Source: an uncultured archaeon (GTDB taxonomy: Archaea; Thermoproteota; Nitrososphaeria; Nitrososphaerales; Gagatemarchaeaceae). From it: a DNA stretch of 64,000 nt. Below are positions 22,518 through 30,126 of the stretch, one piece after another. The stretch spans positions 224,001-288,000 of the forward strand of contig CAWCYD010000003.1 of the NCBI GenBank assembly GCA_963799775.1, given 5' to 3'. The notes beneath the pieces were generated by a model, which was not told the origin of the DNA, ran no database searches, and worked only from the letters and a program-made list of their open reading frames with translations. The translations under genes were made by a program, and so were the position numbers. Positions within the stretch are counted from its first letter, which is position 1. The number at the start of each line of letters is the position of its first letter.

Positions 22518-23390
22518 TTGCTCTTTCGGCCCCCTTTCTTCCGACTCGGAGACTGCCCGCCCTTTAGCGCGGCCACAAGCGCTTCCCTCATCTCGCTCTC
22601 GGGGGCCCCCCTTCCCGTCCAGAGCTTGAAGGCAGCCATCCCTTGGTGCAAGAGCATGTCCTCGCCATGTATGACCTTCGCGCCCGACCGGCGGGCCTCC
22701 ACAAGCAGGCCGGTCTCCTTGGGACGGTAGACGGCGTCGAACACGACCTCGCTTCCCGGAACGATCCGCTTCGCCCCGGAGGGGAGGGCAGCCCCGTCTG
22801 CCCCCATGGGCGAGGCGTTGAATATCAGGTCATGGTTGAGATGATGGAGGTCGCCTCATCGAGGCCAGGGTGAGGTTGAGGCGCGGGAAAGCCTTCTCCA
22901 TGTCCTGCACGAACGACCTCGCGCGCTCGGGGTCGCGGACTGCCACGCCCACGTCGACTATCCCGAGCCTGTTCATGGCCTCGCAGAACGCTCGCGCTGC
23001 ACCGCCCGCCCCTATCAGGAGCGCGTTCCTGACGTAGATGGAGGCAAGCAGCCCGCGGAGCGGCTCCACGATCCCGTCCGGGTCCGTATTGTGCCCGGAG
23101 TACCTCCCGTCCTCCTCGAGCTTCACAGTGTTGACAGCTTGTATCCTCGTCGCGACGGCGTCGAGCTCGTCCAGGAACCGGAGCACGGCCGCCTTGAACG
23201 GGATGGTGACGTTCATCCCCTTGAAGCGGATCGAGATGAGGCGGCGGAACTCCCTCGGGAACGCCTGCTCTGGAACGCTCACCTGCGAGTACTCGGCGTC
23301 GATCGCCAGGGCCTTGAACGCGGCGTTCATCATGGCCGGCGAGGGCGAGCGAGACACGTCCCTCCCCACGATGCAGTAGCGGTCGGTCAT
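22514..23390 (-). CDS. aroE: shikimate dehydrogenase (frameshift near 22850)
   Basis: SPSPAMMN, NVTIPFK, AVNT, GHNTD, GAGGAAR, DAVYRP, MLLHQG. Confidence 0.95.
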
Positions 23391-24087
23391 CCCGCTTCGT
23401 TGGGGACCAGGCCCCTGAACTCAATCATGGTGGAAATCGAGAGCTGGCCAGGCGCGACCGCATCGTTGGGGAGAGCGGCGTAGGCGATTGGAGCCTGCAT
23501 GAACATGGAGAGCAGTCGCGACGAGGCACCCTCCTCGCCCATGCAGAACGCCGTCACCTTCCCCGGGTTCTCCTCGCAGAGCCTCAGTGCGCTGACGTTG
23601 TCCTCGAGCTTTGTTGCCGTCGTCACCACCTTCGCTATCGCCCCGTATTGCAGCTCGTCTTTGCAGCTTCTCCTCAGCTCGCTCAGCGGAGGTGCCCCTT
23701 GAAGTCGTGCCACGAGACGATCCTCTCCACCTTGTTCGGCAGGCTCTTCAGCCACCTCTCGTTGTCGACCGCGGTCCTGAGCTCCACGTCCAGGTAGGCG
23801 GGGAGCATAGTGGCAAGCTCCGAGATCAGGCTCAGGCGCTCGATGTCGCTCCCAGAGAACGCCCCTCCTTCTTGGTTGGTCCTTACGGTCACGACGGAAC
23901 GCGGCGCGAACTTCGCCAGCTTTGTCTTGATGTCCTCAGGCGTCACCCTGCTCATGATGCGGTCTATCCGGAACTCCACCAGGTCCGCGCCTAGATGGAA
24001 CGCATACTCCGTCTTCTGGACCATCTCATCGAGAGAGTCTGCGCTTATCGATGCGCATATCTTGGGCATGACTCGCTTGTTGGCCAT
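23387..24087 (-). CDS. aroD: type I 3-dehydroquinate dehydratase (frameshift near 23700)
   Basis: ADLVEFRID, TVRT..EGG, VSWHDF, MG..SR, APGQ. Confidence 0.93.
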
Positions 24088-24103: not shown

Positions 24104-25120
24104 TCAGCGCTCCAAGATGAACTCGTCTACCTCTCCGCCAAAGTGCCTGGCCTTGCCGTGGGCTGCGACGTGGACGAGTATCTCGTCGCCCGCCTTTGCC
24201 TCGGTGACCGCCACGGGCCTGCCGTCCGGCCTCACGAGGCGGATGGTCTCTGCGTTCTGGATCATGGCCGTGCCTTCGTGCCCATCGCACTCCGCGACCA
24301 CCATCACCAAGGGCCTCCTCTCCATCTTTATCCTCCCGACTGTCGCCTCGCGCCTCTTGCCCGCAAAGTCGACGAGCTGGACCTTGTCCCCGGCCTCCAG
24401 CTCAGAGAGGTATCTCGTCTTCCCGTCCGCTCCCAGGATGTAGCTGTGCAGCGCGCCCGCGTTGACCCTGAACGGCCTCGTGGGTATGTACTCGGTGGGG
24501 ATCGTCTCGCTGTGGACGAGGAAGAAGAAGCTGGCCTTGCTCCCTATGAGCATGCCCTCGCCCAGGGAGAGCTGAGATGCGGTGTCGATGCAGACCCTCT
24601 CCCCGTCACCCACGTCCACGATCCGCTTGACCCTGGCCTTTACGAGCTTGAGCTGGTCGCCGTCGACGTTGGCCATAAGTCTCTTGACGGCCGCCAAGGA
24701 CGAGTAGGGCACCACGACGCCGTCGACCCCCTTCTCGAGGATGGAGAACGCCAACCTGATGTCGCTCTCGCTCTTCATGAATGCGTAGATCTTCCTGTGC
24801 TTCCTCCTGAACTCTCCGATGAGGTTCTCAAGAGGTATGATCTTCCAGTTTGTGCAGTCCACCACGACGAACTTGTGGTCATGCTTCAGGGCTGACTCGA
24901 CCGCCCTGTCCAGGTCCTTGGCGCCCTTGACCTCTATCCACGCAAAGTCCCCTTCTTTCTCCTTGTACTCGCGCATTCCCGACCCCGACGCGGCGCCCAG
25001 AGGCCTCGCGCTCCTGTTGATGACTGCGTTGATGCCGGCCCCCTTGGCCTCCTTCAGAGCTTTCGAGAGGTCTTTTGCTTCCGTGAGGTCGAGGATAATC
25101 TCTTTCTCAGGCTGGAGCAG
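24104..25120 (-). CDS. aroB': 3-dehydroquinate synthase II (AroB')
   Basis: WKIIPLEN, ERVCIDT, GEGMLIGS, RPFRVNAG, IQNAETI; frame open to CTG 25120 after GGAGGT. Confidence 0.93.
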   Translation of the reverse strand: MLQPEKEIILDLTEAKDLSKALKEAKGAGINAVINRSARPLGAASGSGMREYKEKEGDFAWIEVKGAKDLDRAVESALKHDHKFVVVDCTNWKIIPLENLIGEFRRKHRKIYAFMKSESDIRLAFSILEKGVDGVVVPYSSLAAVKRLMANVDGDQLKLVKARVKRIVDVGDGERVCIDTASQLSLGEGMLIGSKASFFFLVHSETIPTEYIPTRPFRVNAGALHSYILGADGKTRYLSELEAGDKVQLVDFAGKRREATVGRIKMERRPLVMVVAECDGHEGTAMIQNAETIRLVRPDGRPVAVTEAKAGDEILVHVAAHGKARHFGGEVDEFILER

Positions 25121-25900
25121 CGCCCATTACCTCCATCGCCTCTTCCACGCTGCCTCCGTCGATCACCACCCGCCTGATCGCCCTGACGATGAGGGTCGGG
25201 TCGCGGTGCTGGAATACGTTCCTCCCGAACGTGACGCCTGCGGCCCCTGCCTCCATGACGTCGCTGGCTAGCTTGAGGATCTCAAGGTCGTTCTCTACCT
25301 TCGCCCCTCCCGCGAGGACGACCGGGACAAGGCACTTCCTCACGACTTCCCTGAAGGTCTCCGGGCTCCCTGTGTAGACCGTCTTGACGATGTCCGCCCC
25401 CGACTCGGCCCCGACCCTCGCCACGTGCGCCACCACCTGCGGGTCCGTGGGTCCTTGATGTTCTCGCCCCTGGGGTACATCATCGCGATCAGCGGGACCT
25501 GGTACTCGTCGCACTCGTCCGCGACCAAGCCGAGCTGTTGGAGCATCTCCGGCTCCTCTTTGGAGCCCATGTTGATGTGGACCGAGATCGCGTCCGCACC
25601 GAGCCTCAATCCCTCCACTACCGAGGAACTGACCATCTTCCTGTTCGGCGCAGGGCTTAGGTTGGTGCTCGAGGAGATGTGCATGATCATCCCGATTGGG
25701 GCTGGCTTCCTCATCGCCTTGATCACTCCCTTGTGGACGAGGAAGGCCGTCGCGCCGCCCTTCGCCACCTTCGCGATCATCTCCTCAGGGCCCTCGAGAC
25801 CTGCGATGGGTCCGACTGTGAAGGAGTGGTCCATGGGGATGCAGAGCATCCTTCCGCCCTTCGTTATCCTGTTGATCCTCACCTGCTTCCCGAACACCAT
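25107..25900 (-). CDS. aroA': 2-amino-3,7-dideoxy-D-threo-hept-6-ulosonate synthase (class I aldolase, AroA'; frameshift near 25445)
   Basis: PMDH, GADAISVHIN, MMYPRG, GADIVKT, GRNVFQH; adjacent to aroB'. Confidence 0.9.
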
Positions 25901-25907
25901 GTCTCCA

Positions 25908-26982
25908 TTACCTCCCCAGGTATCCCTCTCTTTCCATGAGCTCCGCTGTAAGTATTGCCGTCCCGGCCGCTCCACGGATCGTGTTGTGGGAGAGAAGGGT
26001 GAGCTGCAGCGACCTCTCGTCTATCCCGTTCCTGACCCGGCCGACGACGACGCTCATGCCGGGCACGCTCCCCGCCAGCCTGTCGAGGCGCGGCTGGGGC
26101 CTGTCGTTCTCCTTCCTTACGATGATCGGCTGCTGGGGCGCCGTCGGGAGCTTCAGCTTCTGGGGCTCGCCCTTGAACCTCTCCAGAGCCCTCTCGGCAG
26201 ACTTTGGCGAGATCCTCCCCGGGAACTCCGCATAGAGGGTCTCCATGTGCCCGTCGATGACCGCGACCCGGTTGCAGGAGATGCCCATTCTTATCGGGCT
26301 AGGCTTGATCGCGCCGCCGACGAGCTTGCCAAGGATCTTCTTCGCCTCGGCGGCCACCTTCTCCTCCTCGTTCTTGATGTAGGGTATGACGTTCTCCTGT
26401 ATCGCGAGCGAGGGGACTCCCGGATATCCGGCACCTGAGAGGGCCTGCATCGTCGTGACGATGGCCTTCTCGGCGCCGAACTCGTCGATTAGGGGCTTGA
26501 GCACCATGGAGAGGCCCGTGCCCGTGCAGTTCGGCGTCGTCGCTATGGCGCCCTTCCACCCCCTCTTGTTCTTCTGGGACTTTAGAAGGCCCAGGTGCTC
26601 GGCGTTTATCTCGGGTATCATCAGAGGCACGTCTGGGTCCATCCGGTGGGCGCTCGCCTCGCTCACGACCGTGAATCCTGCCTCGGCGAACTTCGACTCG
26701 ACCTCAGCTGCGACCTCCGAAGGCAGCGCAGAGAAGACGACGTCGCATCCCCTCGCGGACTCCGGTCTGGCACGCTGTACGACCTTCGCGGCCATCTCCT
26801 CGTCCATCTCGTCAGGGAACAGCCAGTGCACGGCCTCCCCGTACTTCTTGCCCGCTGACTCGCCTCCCATCAGGCACCTCCAGCCTCAGGTAGGGGTGCC
26901 TGGGGAGCATGTTGATGTAGCGCTGCCCTACTGCGCCCGTCGCGCCCAGCAGGGCGGCCTTGACCTCTCTACGCTTGCTCAT
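25908..26982 (-). CDS. asd: aspartate-semialdehyde dehydrogenase (frameshift near the N-terminus)
   Basis: LLGATGAVGQ, PNCT, QALSGAGYPG, HNTIRGAAG. Confidence 0.95.
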
Positions 26983-28226
26983 CGTGATTGCATCCTTCCT
27001 GGGGCTTGCGGCTCGCTCGCCATCGCCTCCGTCACCAGGCTGTAGGCCCTTTCCGAGTCGTCGTTTGAGACGAAGACCCTGACGGACGAGAGGATCGTCA
27101 CTATGCCGTAGACGTTGATGCCCGTCTTTGCGAGAGGAGTGGTGATCCTCTGGACCACACCGCGCTCCGTCTCGAGCGCCGCCCCCTTGACGGTGATCAT
27201 GGAGAGGTGGGGGAACTCGGAGACGGCCTTGCCTATCTTCTCCTCTATGAGCACATGGTGAACGCTGTCCAGCACGTTCTCGCCCCCGCCCACGTAGAAG
27301 ATGGCCGCGCTCGTCTCGAGCGAGAGGGCCAGCAGGTCGCCTCGAGCCTCTCTCACCGCAGCGACCGCTCGCATGATCGAGTCGGTCTTGGCCGGATTGA
27401 GGCCGACGAGGGTGATCATCGAGACCCCTCCTCGTACGATCTCCACCTGGGCGGGCGAGAGCTCACCCTTGATGACAGTCCCGGAGTCGAGCTTCTCGAG
27501 GCTCGTGACCCTGATCCGGAGTCCGGATGATTGGTATCTGAGGGCCTTTACGTGGAGGAACTTTGCCCCGCCCGCCGCGAGCATCTCAGCTTCCTCGCCG
27601 TTCAGACTCTCGATGAACTGCGGGTTGGTGACCTTGTCGGGGTCGCTCGAGTAGACCCCTTCCACGTCCTTGACCAGTATGACCTCCTTCGCATCCAAGC
27701 AGTTGCCGAGCAGCACGGCCGTCGTGTCGCTCCCTCCTCTGCCCAATGTCGTCGTCTTTCCGCGGATCGTCTTCCCCAGGAAGCCGCAGACGACAGGCAC
27801 GCGTCCCGCCGCCAAAAGAGGCATAATCAGCTGCTGGGCCTTCGCCCTGCTCTCCGCCACGAGCGGGTTCGCGTCTAGATGCTTCTCGTCCGTGATGACG
27901 GGCCAGTACGGAGTATCGGGGTCGACGACGACCGACTGGAGGCCGAACGACGCGAGGGCCGCCGCGACGAGTCTGGCGCTCGTCTTCTCTCCGGACGAGA
28001 GCAGCTCGTCGAGCAGATGGGGCTCGATGCCCGGGTTCTCCTTCTTCGAGAGGGACATTATCTGATCTGTGACGCCCTTCATCGCGGAGACGACCGCGAC
28101 CACCCCGAGCCCCTTGCTCTTCGTCTCTTTGATCAGGGAAGCCACTTGGTTGATGGCCTTCTCGTTCTCGAGAACCGATCCGCCGAACTTGACGACGACG
28201 GTCTCAATCATCTTAGTTGTGCTCAT
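26979..28226 (-). CDS. lysC: aspartate kinase
   Basis: VVKFGGS, VVSAM, TTLGRGGSDTTA, DVEGVYSSDP, ACT-like tail. Confidence 0.95.
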   Translation of the reverse strand: MSTTKMIETVVVKFGGSVLENEKAINQVASLIKETKSKGLGVVAVVSAMKGVTDQIMSLSKKENPGIEPHLLDELLSSGEKTSARLVAAALASFGLQSVVVDPDTPYWPVITDEKHLDANPLVAESRAKAQQLIMPLLAAGRVPVVCGFLGKTIRGKTTTLGRGGSDTTAVLLGNCLDAKEVILVKDVEGVYSSDPDKVTNPQFIESLNGEEAEMLAAGGAKFLHVKALRYQSSGLRIRVTSLEKLDSGTVIKGELSPAQVEIVRGGVSMITLVGLNPAKTDSIMRAVAAVREARGDLLALSLETSAAIFYVGGGENVLDSVHHVLIEEKIGKAVSEFPHLSMITVKGAALETERGVVQRITTPLAKTGINVYGIVTILSSVRVFVSNDDSERAYSLVTEAMASEPQAPGRMQSR

Positions 28227-28274
28227 GGTGCAAGACGCTCCAGCTGATTTTCGCGTAGGAAACTAGAGCGCGAG

Positions 28275-28349
28275 CTAGTAGCGAAAACCGAAGATGGGCT
28301 TCCAATAACCGAGGTTCCCATAAACTGAACCGCCTCTGTGGAGCTCCAT
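28275..28349 (-). CDS. putative aromatic-rich leader peptide of the lysC-asd-aro operon (MELHRGGSVYGNLGYWKPIFGFRY)
   Basis: 24 aa with 3 Tyr, 2 Phe, 1 Trp; TATA-like CATAAATAT ~32 nt upstream; ends 48 nt before the lysC ATG. Confidence 0.6.
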   Translation of the reverse strand: MELHRGGSVYGNLGYWKPIFGFRY

Positions 28350-28563
28350 CTCTTCTTCACTCTCTGGCGCTCGAGAATCGATATTTATGCATTGCTGAGT
28401 TGGAACGGCGCCTTTCCCCTGGCCCACAGGGCATCGCACTGGTTCTCTGGTCTGTCTACCTGGCCGAAAGATTCTTTCGAGAAAAATCATAAACATCACT
28501 TCCGACATATTAAATAGAGGAGGTCGGGGCACCGAAAAATCCTCAGGGTAGGGTACTGGTCGT

Positions 28564-30126
28564 ATGGTTGCCACGCTTGTTTTCTCACCTGTAGCCGGAA
28601 TAATCCTCGGTTTATCGGTGCTCCTCAGCTTCTCCTTCTTCATCTACGGCATCAACACGCTCTATCTTACTCGCAAGGCCCGCGGTTACACCCAGCCGGC
28701 GTTGGCGACGTTGAAGGAAAGGCCCCCCGTTGCGGTGCATCTGCCCGTCTACAACGAGTTCTACGTGGCCGACAGGCTCCTCAACGCCTGCGCCAAGATG
28801 GCCGACCATTACGGGAAGAGTCTGGTGAGAGTCGTCGTGATCGACGACTCGGATGACGAGACGCGCCAGAAGCTCGACGGGCTCGCCTCGGACTACACCT
28901 CCAAGGGGTACAAGGTCGAGCTCCTCCGCAGGGGGACCAGGGCTGGCTTCAAGGCCGGGGCTCTTCAGGCTGCCCTCGAGAAGACGACCGAGCCGTTCGT
29001 CGCCGTCTTCGACGCGGACTTTGCCCCCAGCGAGGACTTCCTCGAGAGGACCGTCCCCTTCATGATCCAAGACGACAAGGTGGGGTTCGTCCAGTGCAGG
29101 TGGACCCACTTCGACAGGGGTTACAACATGATCACCGAGACTCTCGCGATAGGCGTCGACGCCCACTTCCTGCTGGAGCAGCCCGGCAGATGGAGCGGAG
29201 GCTACATGATGAACTTCAACGGGAGCGCAGGTCTCCTCCGGACAGTGGCCATCGTCAGTGCGGGAGGATGGAACGCCGACACCCTCGCAGAAGACCTCGA
29301 CCTCAGCTACCGCATGCAGCTCAACGGTTTCAAGCCGGTCTATCTGAAAGACGTGAAGTTCCCGGCAGAGCTCCCACCGACGATCACGAGCCTGAAGAGA
29401 CAGCAGGGCAGGTGGGCCCGGGGCTCCATCCAGACGGCGCGCAAGGTCTGGCCCACGATATACGCCTCCAAGAAGCTCTCCGTCAGGCAGAAGTTCGAGG
29501 CCTTCGTCCACCTGACGTACTACATGGTCCATCCCCTCATGGTGGCCTCGTTCGTCCTTGCCCTTCTCGCGACCTTCCTCAACGTGAACGTCATCAACTA
29601 CGCGGTCCACGTGACGATCCCGAGCCCTGGGGCGATAGTCGGCTCGCCGGCCGAGGTGACACTGAGCATCGTGCCCTGGGCGATCTTCGCCCTCATGATC
29701 GTCCTCTCGACGCTCTCGGTGCTCTACTACTGCGTGGAGGCTGTGAGGGCCCAGCACATGGGCCTTTTCAAGAACGTCAGGCAGATCATCCTTCTAGTCA
29801 TCCTTGGATATGGGATCAGCGTCAGCAACTCCGTGAGCGCTCTCTCGGGCCTCCTCTCGCCGCAGACCGGAACGTTCCTGAGGACGCCAAAGTACGCCAT
29901 CACCAGCAAGACTGGGACTTGGAAGGAGAAGAAGTACCAACTGACTCTCAACAGGGAGACCGTTTTCGAGATGATCGCCACGGGGGTCGGAATAATCGCG
30001 ATAATCTACGCCATGGCCCTGGGGAACCTTGGGATCCTCCCGATACTTGCGGTCTATGTCACCGGTTACCTGCTGGTGCTCTTCCTGACGCTCTCCCAGT
30101 CTGTCTCCAGACAAAGCGGCAGCTGA
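28564..30126 (+). CDS. GT2 processive glycosyltransferase (cellulose synthase-like)
   Basis: DDS.D, GFKAGAL, FDADF, LAEDLD, QQGRW (D,D,D,QxxRW); C-terminal TMs. Confidence 0.9.
   Translation: MVATLVFSPVAGIILGLSVLLSFSFFIYGINTLYLTRKARGYTQPALATLKERPPVAVHLPVYNEFYVADRLLNACAKMADHYGKSLVRVVVIDDSDDETRQKLDGLASDYTSKGYKVELLRRGTRAGFKAGALQAALEKTTEPFVAVFDADFAPSEDFLERTVPFMIQDDKVGFVQCRWTHFDRGYNMITETLAIGVDAHFLLEQPGRWSGGYMMNFNGSAGLLRTVAIVSAGGWNADTLAEDLDLSYRMQLNGFKPVYLKDVKFPAELPPTITSLKRQQGRWARGSIQTARKVWPTIYASKKLSVRQKFEAFVHLTYYMVHPLMVASFVLALLATFLNVNVINYAVHVTIPSPGAIVGSPAEVTLSIVPWAIFALMIVLSTLSVLYYCVEAVRAQHMGLFKNVRQIILLVILGYGISVSNSVSALSGLLSPQTGTFLRTPKYAITSKTGTWKEKKYQLTLNRETVFEMIATGVGIIAIIYAMALGNLGILPILAVYVTGYLLVLFLTLSQSVSRQSGS

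Follow-up and report, generated by a model that had tools for sequence, protein, structure and literature searches.

Upstream of the operon for aromatic amino-acid biosynthesis in an uncultured archaeon of the Gagatemarchaeaceae lies a short leader open reading frame (ORF) whose frame architecture points to a frameshift- or two-frame-based translational switch. The locus forms part of a 64,000-nt stretch of contig CAWCYD010000003.1 (positions 224,001 to 288,000; hereafter the window), in which the leader precedes a gene for an aspartate kinase; all window coordinates given below are on the minus strand. Tentatively, as a serious candidate that falls a little short of being probable, we propose that a +1 frameshift resembling that of bacterial prfB, occurring at a "hungry" Tyr codon within the leader, couples translation of the operon to the supply of aromatic aminoacyl-tRNA. 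The comparison covers 38 loci from three Nitrososphaerota families and one metagenome contig (L183), among which there are 30 distinct variants of a 21-nt core; L001 denotes the window.

A conserved leader with an open second frame

In the window, the leader ORF in frame 0 comprises 24 codons (MELHRGGSVYGNLGYWKPIFGFRY and a stop; 28275..28349, with ATG at 28349 and TAG at 28277-28275). An in-frame ATG, TTG or GTG start and a TAG, TAA or TGA stop are found in all 38 loci, enclosing ORFs of 12-24 codons, and the start codon is conserved while the stop varies among the three triplets. The tail of the leader is rich in aromatic codons (in the window Y15, W16, F20, F22 and Y24; 28278..28307): among 15 representatives of the kinase-type loci, aromatic residues account for 47/139 tail codons (34%) in frame 0 versus 9/124 (7%) and 15/124 (12%) in the other frames, and an FGF sequence in the tail persists, with synonymous and Phe-to-Tyr substitutions. 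Translation of the leader is almost certain. Its 24-residue peptide has no NCBIfam family match at E values up to 10 (NCBIfam 20), and Rfam 15 yields 0 matches at E up to 10 over 27000-29600.

Near its start, the leader carries an 18-nt core that reads in frame 0 AGA GGC GGU UCA GUU UAU. The invariant unit consists of a 10-nt element complementary to the 3' end of 16S rRNA (GAGGCGGUUC, core positions 2-11), one base, NUU and UAY. In the window, this internal Shine-Dalgarno (SD)-like element reads GAGGCGGTTC (28327..28336), and the genome's own 16S rRNA ends in ...GGAUCACCUCCU. Element and rRNA pair at 9/10 positions in 28 of the 30 distinct variants and at 8/10 in the other two. The sole changes fall at core positions 3, 8, 10 and 11 (A/G, G/A, U/C and C/U), and they retain the rRNA pairing every time while altering the residues encoded in frame 0 from Gly to Asp and from Ser to Leu or Pro; the peptide also varies from Arg to Glu, Gly or Ser. 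Because the variation follows rRNA pairing and breaks the peptide, the conserved unit is the RNA rather than the peptide, and selection at the peptide level on RGGSVY was rejected on the same grounds. A hairpin enclosing the motif, formed by the start-codon region or by GAGGC with a downstream pyrimidine run, could be drawn by eye in several loci and was set aside, its register shifting from locus to locus.

The element is followed by the proposed +1 shift site, GTT TAT (Val, Tyr; 28320..28325), which would be read G-TTT-A after the shift. U14, U15, U16 and A17 are invariant in 30/30 variants, with G, C or U at position 13. The codon at the sensor position is always Tyr, as UAU in 28 variants and UAC in two (the most distant lineages, L180 and L183), except for a Trp codon in a second copy of the unit in L183; both residues fit an aromatic pathway. 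GAGG lies 7 nt from NUU, or the distance is 1 nt if counted from the end of the extended duplex, and the former spacing falls 2-3 nt below the 9-10 nt that separate SD and start in the local kinase genes.

Read from positions 14-16 (UUU), the +1 frame runs without a stop as far as the downstream gene in 38/38 loci. In the window it extends from the TTT at 28324 to a TGA at 28225-28223 that overlaps the kinase ATG (28223..28324), and the codon after TTT happens to be ATG (28321-28319). The downstream gene is a kinase in 31 loci and aroD in seven. Where there is a separate downstream ORF (33 loci), the +1 frame closes in 30 with a TGA that overlaps the start codon (NTGA), and in the other three the frame ends 5, 8 or 13 nt past the downstream start. 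In the remaining five loci the +1 frame is itself the reading frame of aroD, and three of these (L164, L168 and L169, from two genera) have no ATG, GTG or TTG between the leader and the ICTS motif of the DHquinase domain, a motif that, in the AroD encoded by the window, aligns with position 1 of the Pfam DHquinase_I profile. Such start-less aroD genes would be cut short by standard gene callers. The spacers between leader stop and gene start measure 39, 42, 45, 48, 51, 54, 57, 60, 66 and 96 nt, all divisible by 3; spacers of 44 and 83 nt are the exceptions. When 15 lineage representatives were compared with dinucleotide shuffles, the +1 frame was open in 15/15, against shuffle frequencies of 0.12-0.84 each, and the +2 frame in 3/15, which is about chance. 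The product of the shuffle odds for the +1 frame is 3e-8 if lineages are independent, a figure that is overstated since ancestry is shared; the signal is that an open +1 frame persisted while the spacers turned over.

Upstream of the junction, the same frame is closed. The leader start is usually followed by A (ATGA or TTGA; in the window at 28349-28346), which closes the +1 frame right there, and a stop stands before or inside the motif, including a UAG at positions 11-13 in L012 and L167. No canonical start in the +1 frame occurs upstream of the junction in 35/38 loci, and none occurs anywhere before the downstream gene in 16/38. At the other side, frame 0 of L181 already stops at positions 25-27. 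From the stops in L012, L167 and L181 it follows that any entry point shared by all loci lies within positions 14-24, that is, at the NUU-UAY junction. A continuous +1 ORF running through the motif was rejected in view of the UAG in L012 and L167, as was read-through of the leader stop into the kinase, given further frame-0 stops in several clades.

A putative frameshift and the alternatives to it

With an internal SD-like element, NUU-U, an A-site codon that specifies an end product of the pathway, and a +1 frame without a start, the leader has the anatomy of a regulatory +1 frameshift of the prfB kind. From the conserved anatomy and the frame relations we infer leader translation, a frameshift, a response to starvation and re-initiation, which would be connected as follows. 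Transcription would start about 9 nt before the short frame-0 ORF and, five codons in, the ribosome would encounter the 10-nt element, which can pair with the 16S 3' end, and then the single base, NUU and the Tyr codon. With charged tRNA-Tyr scarce, the ribosome would wait with NUU in the P site and the A site empty, the rRNA-mRNA duplex behind it being 2-3 nt closer than at the normal start sites of the lineage. The P-site tRNA could then re-pair one base forward on UUU, and translation would continue in the +1 frame, which is stop-free up to the UGA overlapping the kinase start codon. A ribosome so shifted would unwind the cover of the kinase SD (in the window a stem termed B:D, described below), terminate on the start codon and be able to re-initiate; in genomes of the aroD type it would continue straight into aroD. 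Unshifted ribosomes would pass on to more codons for Phe, Tyr and Trp and terminate long before the kinase. A geometry based on ribosome collision was dropped, the distance from the shift site to the tail codons differing by five codons between clades.

Two divergent loci deserve separate description. At L183:560-680, on a metagenome contig whose kinase is 47% identical, the unit occurs as two tandem in-frame cassettes, AGGUGGUC-GC-GUU-UAC and GGGCGACC-AC-GUU-UGG, ahead of a kinase-ASD pair; beyond the cassettes, 28 open codons in the +1 frame lead to its stop on the kinase TTGA. A generalized form of the cassette pattern has two occurrences elsewhere, in 265 kb of control sequence. We regard this double cassette, with Tyr and Trp as its respective sensor codons, as independent support for the frameshift. 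In the AT-rich relative L181 (G028:C121), the leader consists only of MKLRRGDLLYRR and its stop, and a perfect 12-bp hairpin (UUUACUUUAUCG/CGAUAAAGUAAA) has the shift site in its 5' arm and the frame-0 stop in its 3' arm; this hairpin might serve as a 3' stimulator.

A number of considerations count against such a frameshift. The case is built throughout on comparative sequence, and translation of a leader with a 5' untranslated region (UTR) of about 9 nt and no SD is assumed. In Escherichia coli prfB, which encodes release factor 2 and is autoregulated by a programmed +1 frameshift, the SD-like element stands 3 nt from CUU, as opposed to 7 nt from GAGG or 1 nt from the duplex end here, although the spacing in the core, being shorter than that of the local kinase genes, may have an effect analogous to that in prfB. 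Re-pairing of a tRNA-Val on UUU is imperfect. The aromatic codons in the frame-0 tail have a role that is only partly explained, and the tails of 6/15 representatives contain a further NUU-aromatic junction (CUU UUC, CUU UAC, UUU UAU or UUU UGG). Many lineages have a good, exposed kinase SD, so that the kinase need not depend on ribosomes arriving from upstream. Also, 33% of crude ORF starts have an A at +4, and 38% of those have at least 29 open codons upstream in the frame concerned; such a frame arrangement is not rare within one genome, and its weight derives from conservation across lineages that are not independent. Finally, the element also stands 11 nt before an AUC in the +1 frame (AUG in three loci, AUU in two), and U18 is nearly invariant, which fits initiation at AUC better than a freely varying synonymous position would; since 11 nt is close to the 9-10 nt between SD and start in the kinase genes, plain initiation in the +1 frame is a live alternative.

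This alternative, which we consider unlikely on balance, posits two overlapping leader ORFs and no frameshift: the SD-like element would be an ordinary ribosome-binding site directing initiation in the +1 frame at AUC (in some loci AUG or AUU), thereby producing a second small ORF coupled to the kinase or constituting the start of aroD, and frame-0 traffic or stalling would modulate access to this second ORF. Besides the GAGG-AUN distance, the near invariance of A17 and U18 is in keeping with a start codon, as are the occurrence of C, G or U and never A at position 19 and the AUG found in L001, L010 and L016; the openness of the +1 frame fits equally well. However, AUC is not known to be an efficient start codon in Archaea, and it is kept in 24/30 variants though a one-base change gives AUG. 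L180 and L183, in which UAC removes the AUN codon from the +1 frame, have ACU and ACC at this position and yet retain the Tyr codon, NUU, the spacing and the open +1 frame, and the second cassette of L183 has GGC there. Initiation at AUC also leaves the invariant UUU unexplained, and stalling at the Tyr codon or in the aromatic tail would place a ribosome over the start site, which would mean repression upon starvation unless the +1 ORF is inhibitory.

A preliminary description of the region had put forward translational attenuation by two alternative stems, set by ribosome position on the Y/W/F codons. In such a model, with no change of frame, a ribosome stalled at the late Phe, Tyr or Trp codons or at the stop would mask arms A and B and free the SD within arm D, and B:D (or A:C plus B:D) would re-form on its release. 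We consider this model quite unlikely, although the stems themselves and the SD are present as described. Arm A (GGTTTTCGC, the leader's G-F-R codons; 28281..28289) forms nine pairs with arm C (GCGAAAATC; 28246..28254), and arm B (CGCTCTAG, the anti-SD arm; 28263..28270) forms eight with arm D (CTGGAGCG; 28236..28243), where GGAG (28241-28238), the SD of the kinase, precedes the ATG at 28226 by 11 nt. Each stem includes one G-U pair; taken alone, A:C has an energy of -9.2 and B:D of -10.5 kcal/mol, and B:D is extendable to 11 pairs (28271-28261 with 28245-28235). Alternative partners for arm D exist in CGCUACUAG, made up of the last leader codons and stop, or CUUCGGUU. In 3000 dinucleotide shuffles of the 69-nt stretch, one helix of at least 8 pairs arises in 20%, one of at least 9 pairs in 6.3%, and two or more of at least 8 pairs in 1.9%, and the whole leader folds only slightly better than its shuffles (z = -1.74; 11/200 shuffles as good). 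The further claims that B:D hides the kinase SD and that A:C and B:D are alternatives stand up in the window and its kin: the SD is paired at probability 0.97-1.0 in free RNA, and the stems compete, the minimum-energy fold of the relative L011 forming A:C and leaving the SD free.

How far the stems reach beyond the window is a different matter. In a gapless alignment of 11 same-genus sequences, A:C is paired in 99/99 cells, with one double compensatory change and three wobble-type changes, and B:D in 94.3% of cells, with pair 86:108 broken in 4/11 and pair 80:114 in 1/11. Pairing is thus preserved among these close relatives, but 34/500 column shuffles attain the same covariation; the covariation support is weak because sequence variation is low. 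In other clades with the same leader the stems are absent, and the spacers there are unrelated and unalignable with that of the window. Burial of the SD beats 92-94% of shuffles in L001 and L002 and 97.5% in L162, where the anti-SD arm adjoins the stop codon; the SD is likewise buried in L043 and in close relatives of the window. As a general feature such burial is not supported, being no better than in shuffles in 14/18 sequences.

The attenuation model can thus draw on the stems kept in 11 relatives with a compensatory change in A:C, on the tight pairing of the SD in the window, on the enrichment of aromatic codons in the tail, and on the aromatic-rich leaders that precede kinase genes in L185 and L188 too. 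Against it, a stall at F20 or F22 would mask A and not B, hence favoring B:D, and the multiple-of-3 spacers, the open +1 frame, the NTGA overlap and the start-less aroD in the +1 frame are left unexplained, as is L181, in which the leader ends directly behind Tyr-Arg-Arg and an aromatic tail is missing. Stems A-D are a clade-specific accessory, found in one subclade only, of a more widely conserved leader. What survives of the earlier model is that ribosome position on the aromatic codons probably matters; a change of frame is likelier than a choice between two stems.

Very improbable, lastly, is the notion that the invariant 18 nt form a protein-binding site (a DNA operator directly behind the transcription start or an RNA site bound by a regulator), or that RGGSVY acts in the exit tunnel or as a micro-protein, with the frame relations incidental: the motif is conserved at the nucleotide level within the genus, third codon positions included, is single-copy in the genome and encodes a peptide recognizable in most loci, but its distance to the TATA box varies over 49-69 nt, it is not palindromic, its variation tracks rRNA pairing and breaks the peptide, its distance to the leader stop ranges over 2-14 codons, which speaks against a tunnel-arrest peptide, and the frame statistics would be left unexplained.

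Locus, transcription and distribution

The leader lies in an intergenic region extending from 28563 to the kinase start at 28226 and flanked by a divergent glycosyltransferase gene (start 28564) and the aspartate kinase gene. The latter (26979..28226; 415 aa; Pfam AA_kinase at 2.2e-47 and an ACT domain) is the first gene of the aromatic operon, and its stop overlaps the start of the ASD gene (ATGA at 26982-26979). By Pfam assignment, the genes on the same strand are in order aspartate kinase, ASD, a DeoC-type aldolase, 3-dehydroquinate synthase II, type I dehydroquinase (aroD), shikimate dehydrogenase (aroE), a GHMP kinase, EPSP synthase, chorismate synthase and a chorismate mutase-aminotransferase fusion; the DeoC-family aldolase is expected to be the 2-amino-3,7-dideoxy-hept-6-ulosonate synthase. 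This run of genes bears out the preliminary assignment of the leader to an aromatic operon. It also overturns the label lysC that had been given to the kinase: the archaeal aromatic pathway is described as starting from aspartate semialdehyde (PMC4162585), and as the operon genes are those of this pathway, the kinase is an aromatic-pathway enzyme and not a lysine one.

Several of these genes are split or truncated in the assembly. ASD, the DeoC aldolase and aroD appear as two ORFs each, aroE is short, and 3-dehydroquinate synthase II lacks the first ~65 profile positions; the regions concerned are 26870-26882 (ASD), 25340-25975 / 25107-25514, 23387-24087 and 22830-23390. At the ASD break the sequence reads GTGCCTGATG, and one C fewer would restore the frame. 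Given that the genome consists of three contigs and is yet 81.7% complete, the breaks look like long-read homopolymer indel errors rather than biology.

A putative archaeal promoter, recognized by consensus as AA-N-GCATAAATAT (an AA resembling the B recognition element, BRE, plus a TATA box), lies at 28381..28394. An alignment of 34 leaders shows little or no variation in its AA and TAAATA columns, and the BRE/TATA element conserved across loci is AA-N-GCATAAATA. Most loci have 37-40 nt between TATA and the leader start codon; L161 has 43 nt, and one genus 45 nt. Archaeal transcription usually starts some 26 nt from the TATA box; this spacing, together with a conserved pyrimidine-GAG at the position, places the predicted transcription start at 28358 and the 5' UTR at about 9 nt, and across loci the same usual spacing would give UTRs of roughly 6-10 nt. 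One genus has a longer UTR instead, with a true GGAGG 4 nt before the leader start. RNA contigs from four metatranscriptome runs in three studies bridge the leader-kinase junction, being continuous over 28021-28336 and reaching 28348 at the farthest. As they are 85-93% identical, they come from relatives; such contigs cannot show transcription start, strand or level, and may include carried-over DNA. They are compatible with a single transcript starting near 28358, without proving it, and speak against the kinase requiring a promoter of its own. Another TATA-like box, also conserved, lies at 28505-28520 (minus strand TCTATTTAATATG; CTATTTAATATGTT in relatives sharing the divergent gene). The glycosyltransferase start (28564) is some 50 nt away, and the box is presumably the promoter of that gene.

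BLAST located the leader region in 17/41 relatives, and a sequence-only covariance model built from 19 leaders located it in 35/97 genomes of the family, including 21/22 other members of the genus and 7/10 genera. With a second covariance model, only two genomes outside the family were added among 151 of the order, both of which were checked, and nothing convincing emerged from a 151-genome sample of the phylum: nine weak matches at that level lie inside longer ORFs or have no UUU, and none shows the leader architecture. A second covariance match in G020 (L175) was dropped, as it sits at the end of an ORF. An exact 17-mer scan produced, among the matches listed, mostly chance matches in bacteria, the archaeal ones alone being informative. 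A metagenome scan with the kinase alignment recovered only distant kinases, at most 47% identical, and one locus (L183) with the cassette. Within the window genome, the cassette pattern with up to two mismatches occurs at this site only; a relaxed screen gave ten matches, of which one, inside a methyltransferase gene, looks similar and was discarded.

Two of the distant kinase loci have upstream ORFs of other designs. L185:546-602 (kinase 36% identical, followed by an ORF resembling 3-dehydroquinate synthase II) has, after a TATA-like box, the ORF MTSSVTFYDFTYGYYFYF with 9/18 residues aromatic, which represents a different leader design before the same kind of operon. At L188:525-605 (kinase 42% identical), the upstream ORF MKEKTRVLFGALTFFFAYFGYSGHLT is followed after its stop by GGAGAGGTCGGCAACAGTCTTTATC, which is cassette-like and has another frame relation.

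Significance and comparison with known systems

In its relevant parts, a 2021 review lists only one demonstrated programmed frameshift, of the -1 type, in an archaeal cellular gene (PMC8211752), and the portions of the literature consulted contain no established control of amino-acid biosynthesis by a leader peptide or upstream ORF in Archaea. Nor did full-text searches turn up a paper on an aromatic leader in Archaea or on regulatory +1 frameshifting in a gene of an archaeal cell. If true, the proposed frameshift would be the first of its regulatory kind in an archaeal cell, would have as its programmed sensor a "hungry" sense codon rather than a stop codon or polyamine, and would offer a simple, testable answer to how aromatic amino acids are sensed in uncultured Nitrososphaerota of soil and peat. 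It would also explain why aroD looks start-less in some genomes, with consequences for annotation. Should only the weaker claim hold, with an aromatic leader that is conserved and translated and whose second frame is coupled to the start of the kinase, the region would nonetheless contain a regulatory element new to the phylum. A far broader possibility, which we think doubtful, is that the cassette is a modular archaeal device that reads the charging of a chosen tRNA by +1 frameshifting at a hungry codon, with stackable sensor codons such as the Tyr and Trp of L183; it would then be the sole route to the essential enzyme AroD in some genomes and an archaeal counterpart of bacterial attenuators and T-boxes, one that serves outside this family as well and may be turned to further amino acids.

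Among known systems, prfB offers the closest parallel. Both have a short frame-0 ORF with an SD-like element upstream of NUU-U (CUU U in prfB; G, C or U followed by UU U in the leader), and a useful product or route in a +1 frame that has no start of its own, and the Tyr codon of the leader may correspond to the slowly decoded A-site codon that acts as sensor in prfB (general account of such shifts in PMC5009743). The slippery NUU-U, the SD-like element and the start-less +1 ORF are thus all found in the leader, and the 3-nt spacing is not. The two differ further in that the leader's sensor would be a sense codon read by a tRNA (Tyr, or Trp in L183), as opposed to a stop codon read by a release factor; in that the +1 frame of the leader encodes nothing conserved in most loci and only delivers the ribosome to the next start; and in that the leader belongs to an archaeal host and is known here from its sequence.

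Attenuators of the pheL, trpL and pheM type share with the archaeal leader a short ORF rich in end-product codons ahead of a biosynthetic operon, with ribosome progress as the signal. No hairpin with a U-run that could act as a terminator occurs between leader and kinase, and there is no terminator/antiterminator pair; the level of control, unlike in these attenuators, is probably translation. A +1 shift at the end of pheL is judged incidental in the passage concerned of PMC5009743. The leaderless short ORFs encoding polycysteine in mycobacteria (bioRxiv 10.1101/834739) resemble the archaeal case in a very short or absent 5' UTR, in a small ORF with codons for the regulated amino acid, and in its position as first cistron of a biosynthetic operon. 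They are bacterial, however, and the available portion of that report mentions neither a frameshift nor an element complementary to the anti-SD.

For the events downstream of the shift, the nearest precedents are of two kinds. Coupling of termination and re-initiation at overlapping gene pairs has been shown in Haloferax (Huber 2019, as cited in PMC7531240), where, as in the archaeal leader, stop and start overlap as NUGA and an SD helps re-initiation; that coupling joins two ordinary genes, whereas the upstream partner in the leader would be reachable only by recoding or from a non-canonical start. In the ermC leader, according to the account in PMC5009743, ribosomes frameshifted under ketolide induction enter the spacer, unfold it and turn on ermC. 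The likeness lies in frame-changed ribosomes that bypass the leader stop, translate the spacer, unfold its structure and permit initiation downstream. In ermC, however, a drug induces the shift, which depends little on sequence, whereas in the archaeal leader a conserved cassette and an amino-acid codon would act as trigger, and its new frame ends exactly on a start codon.

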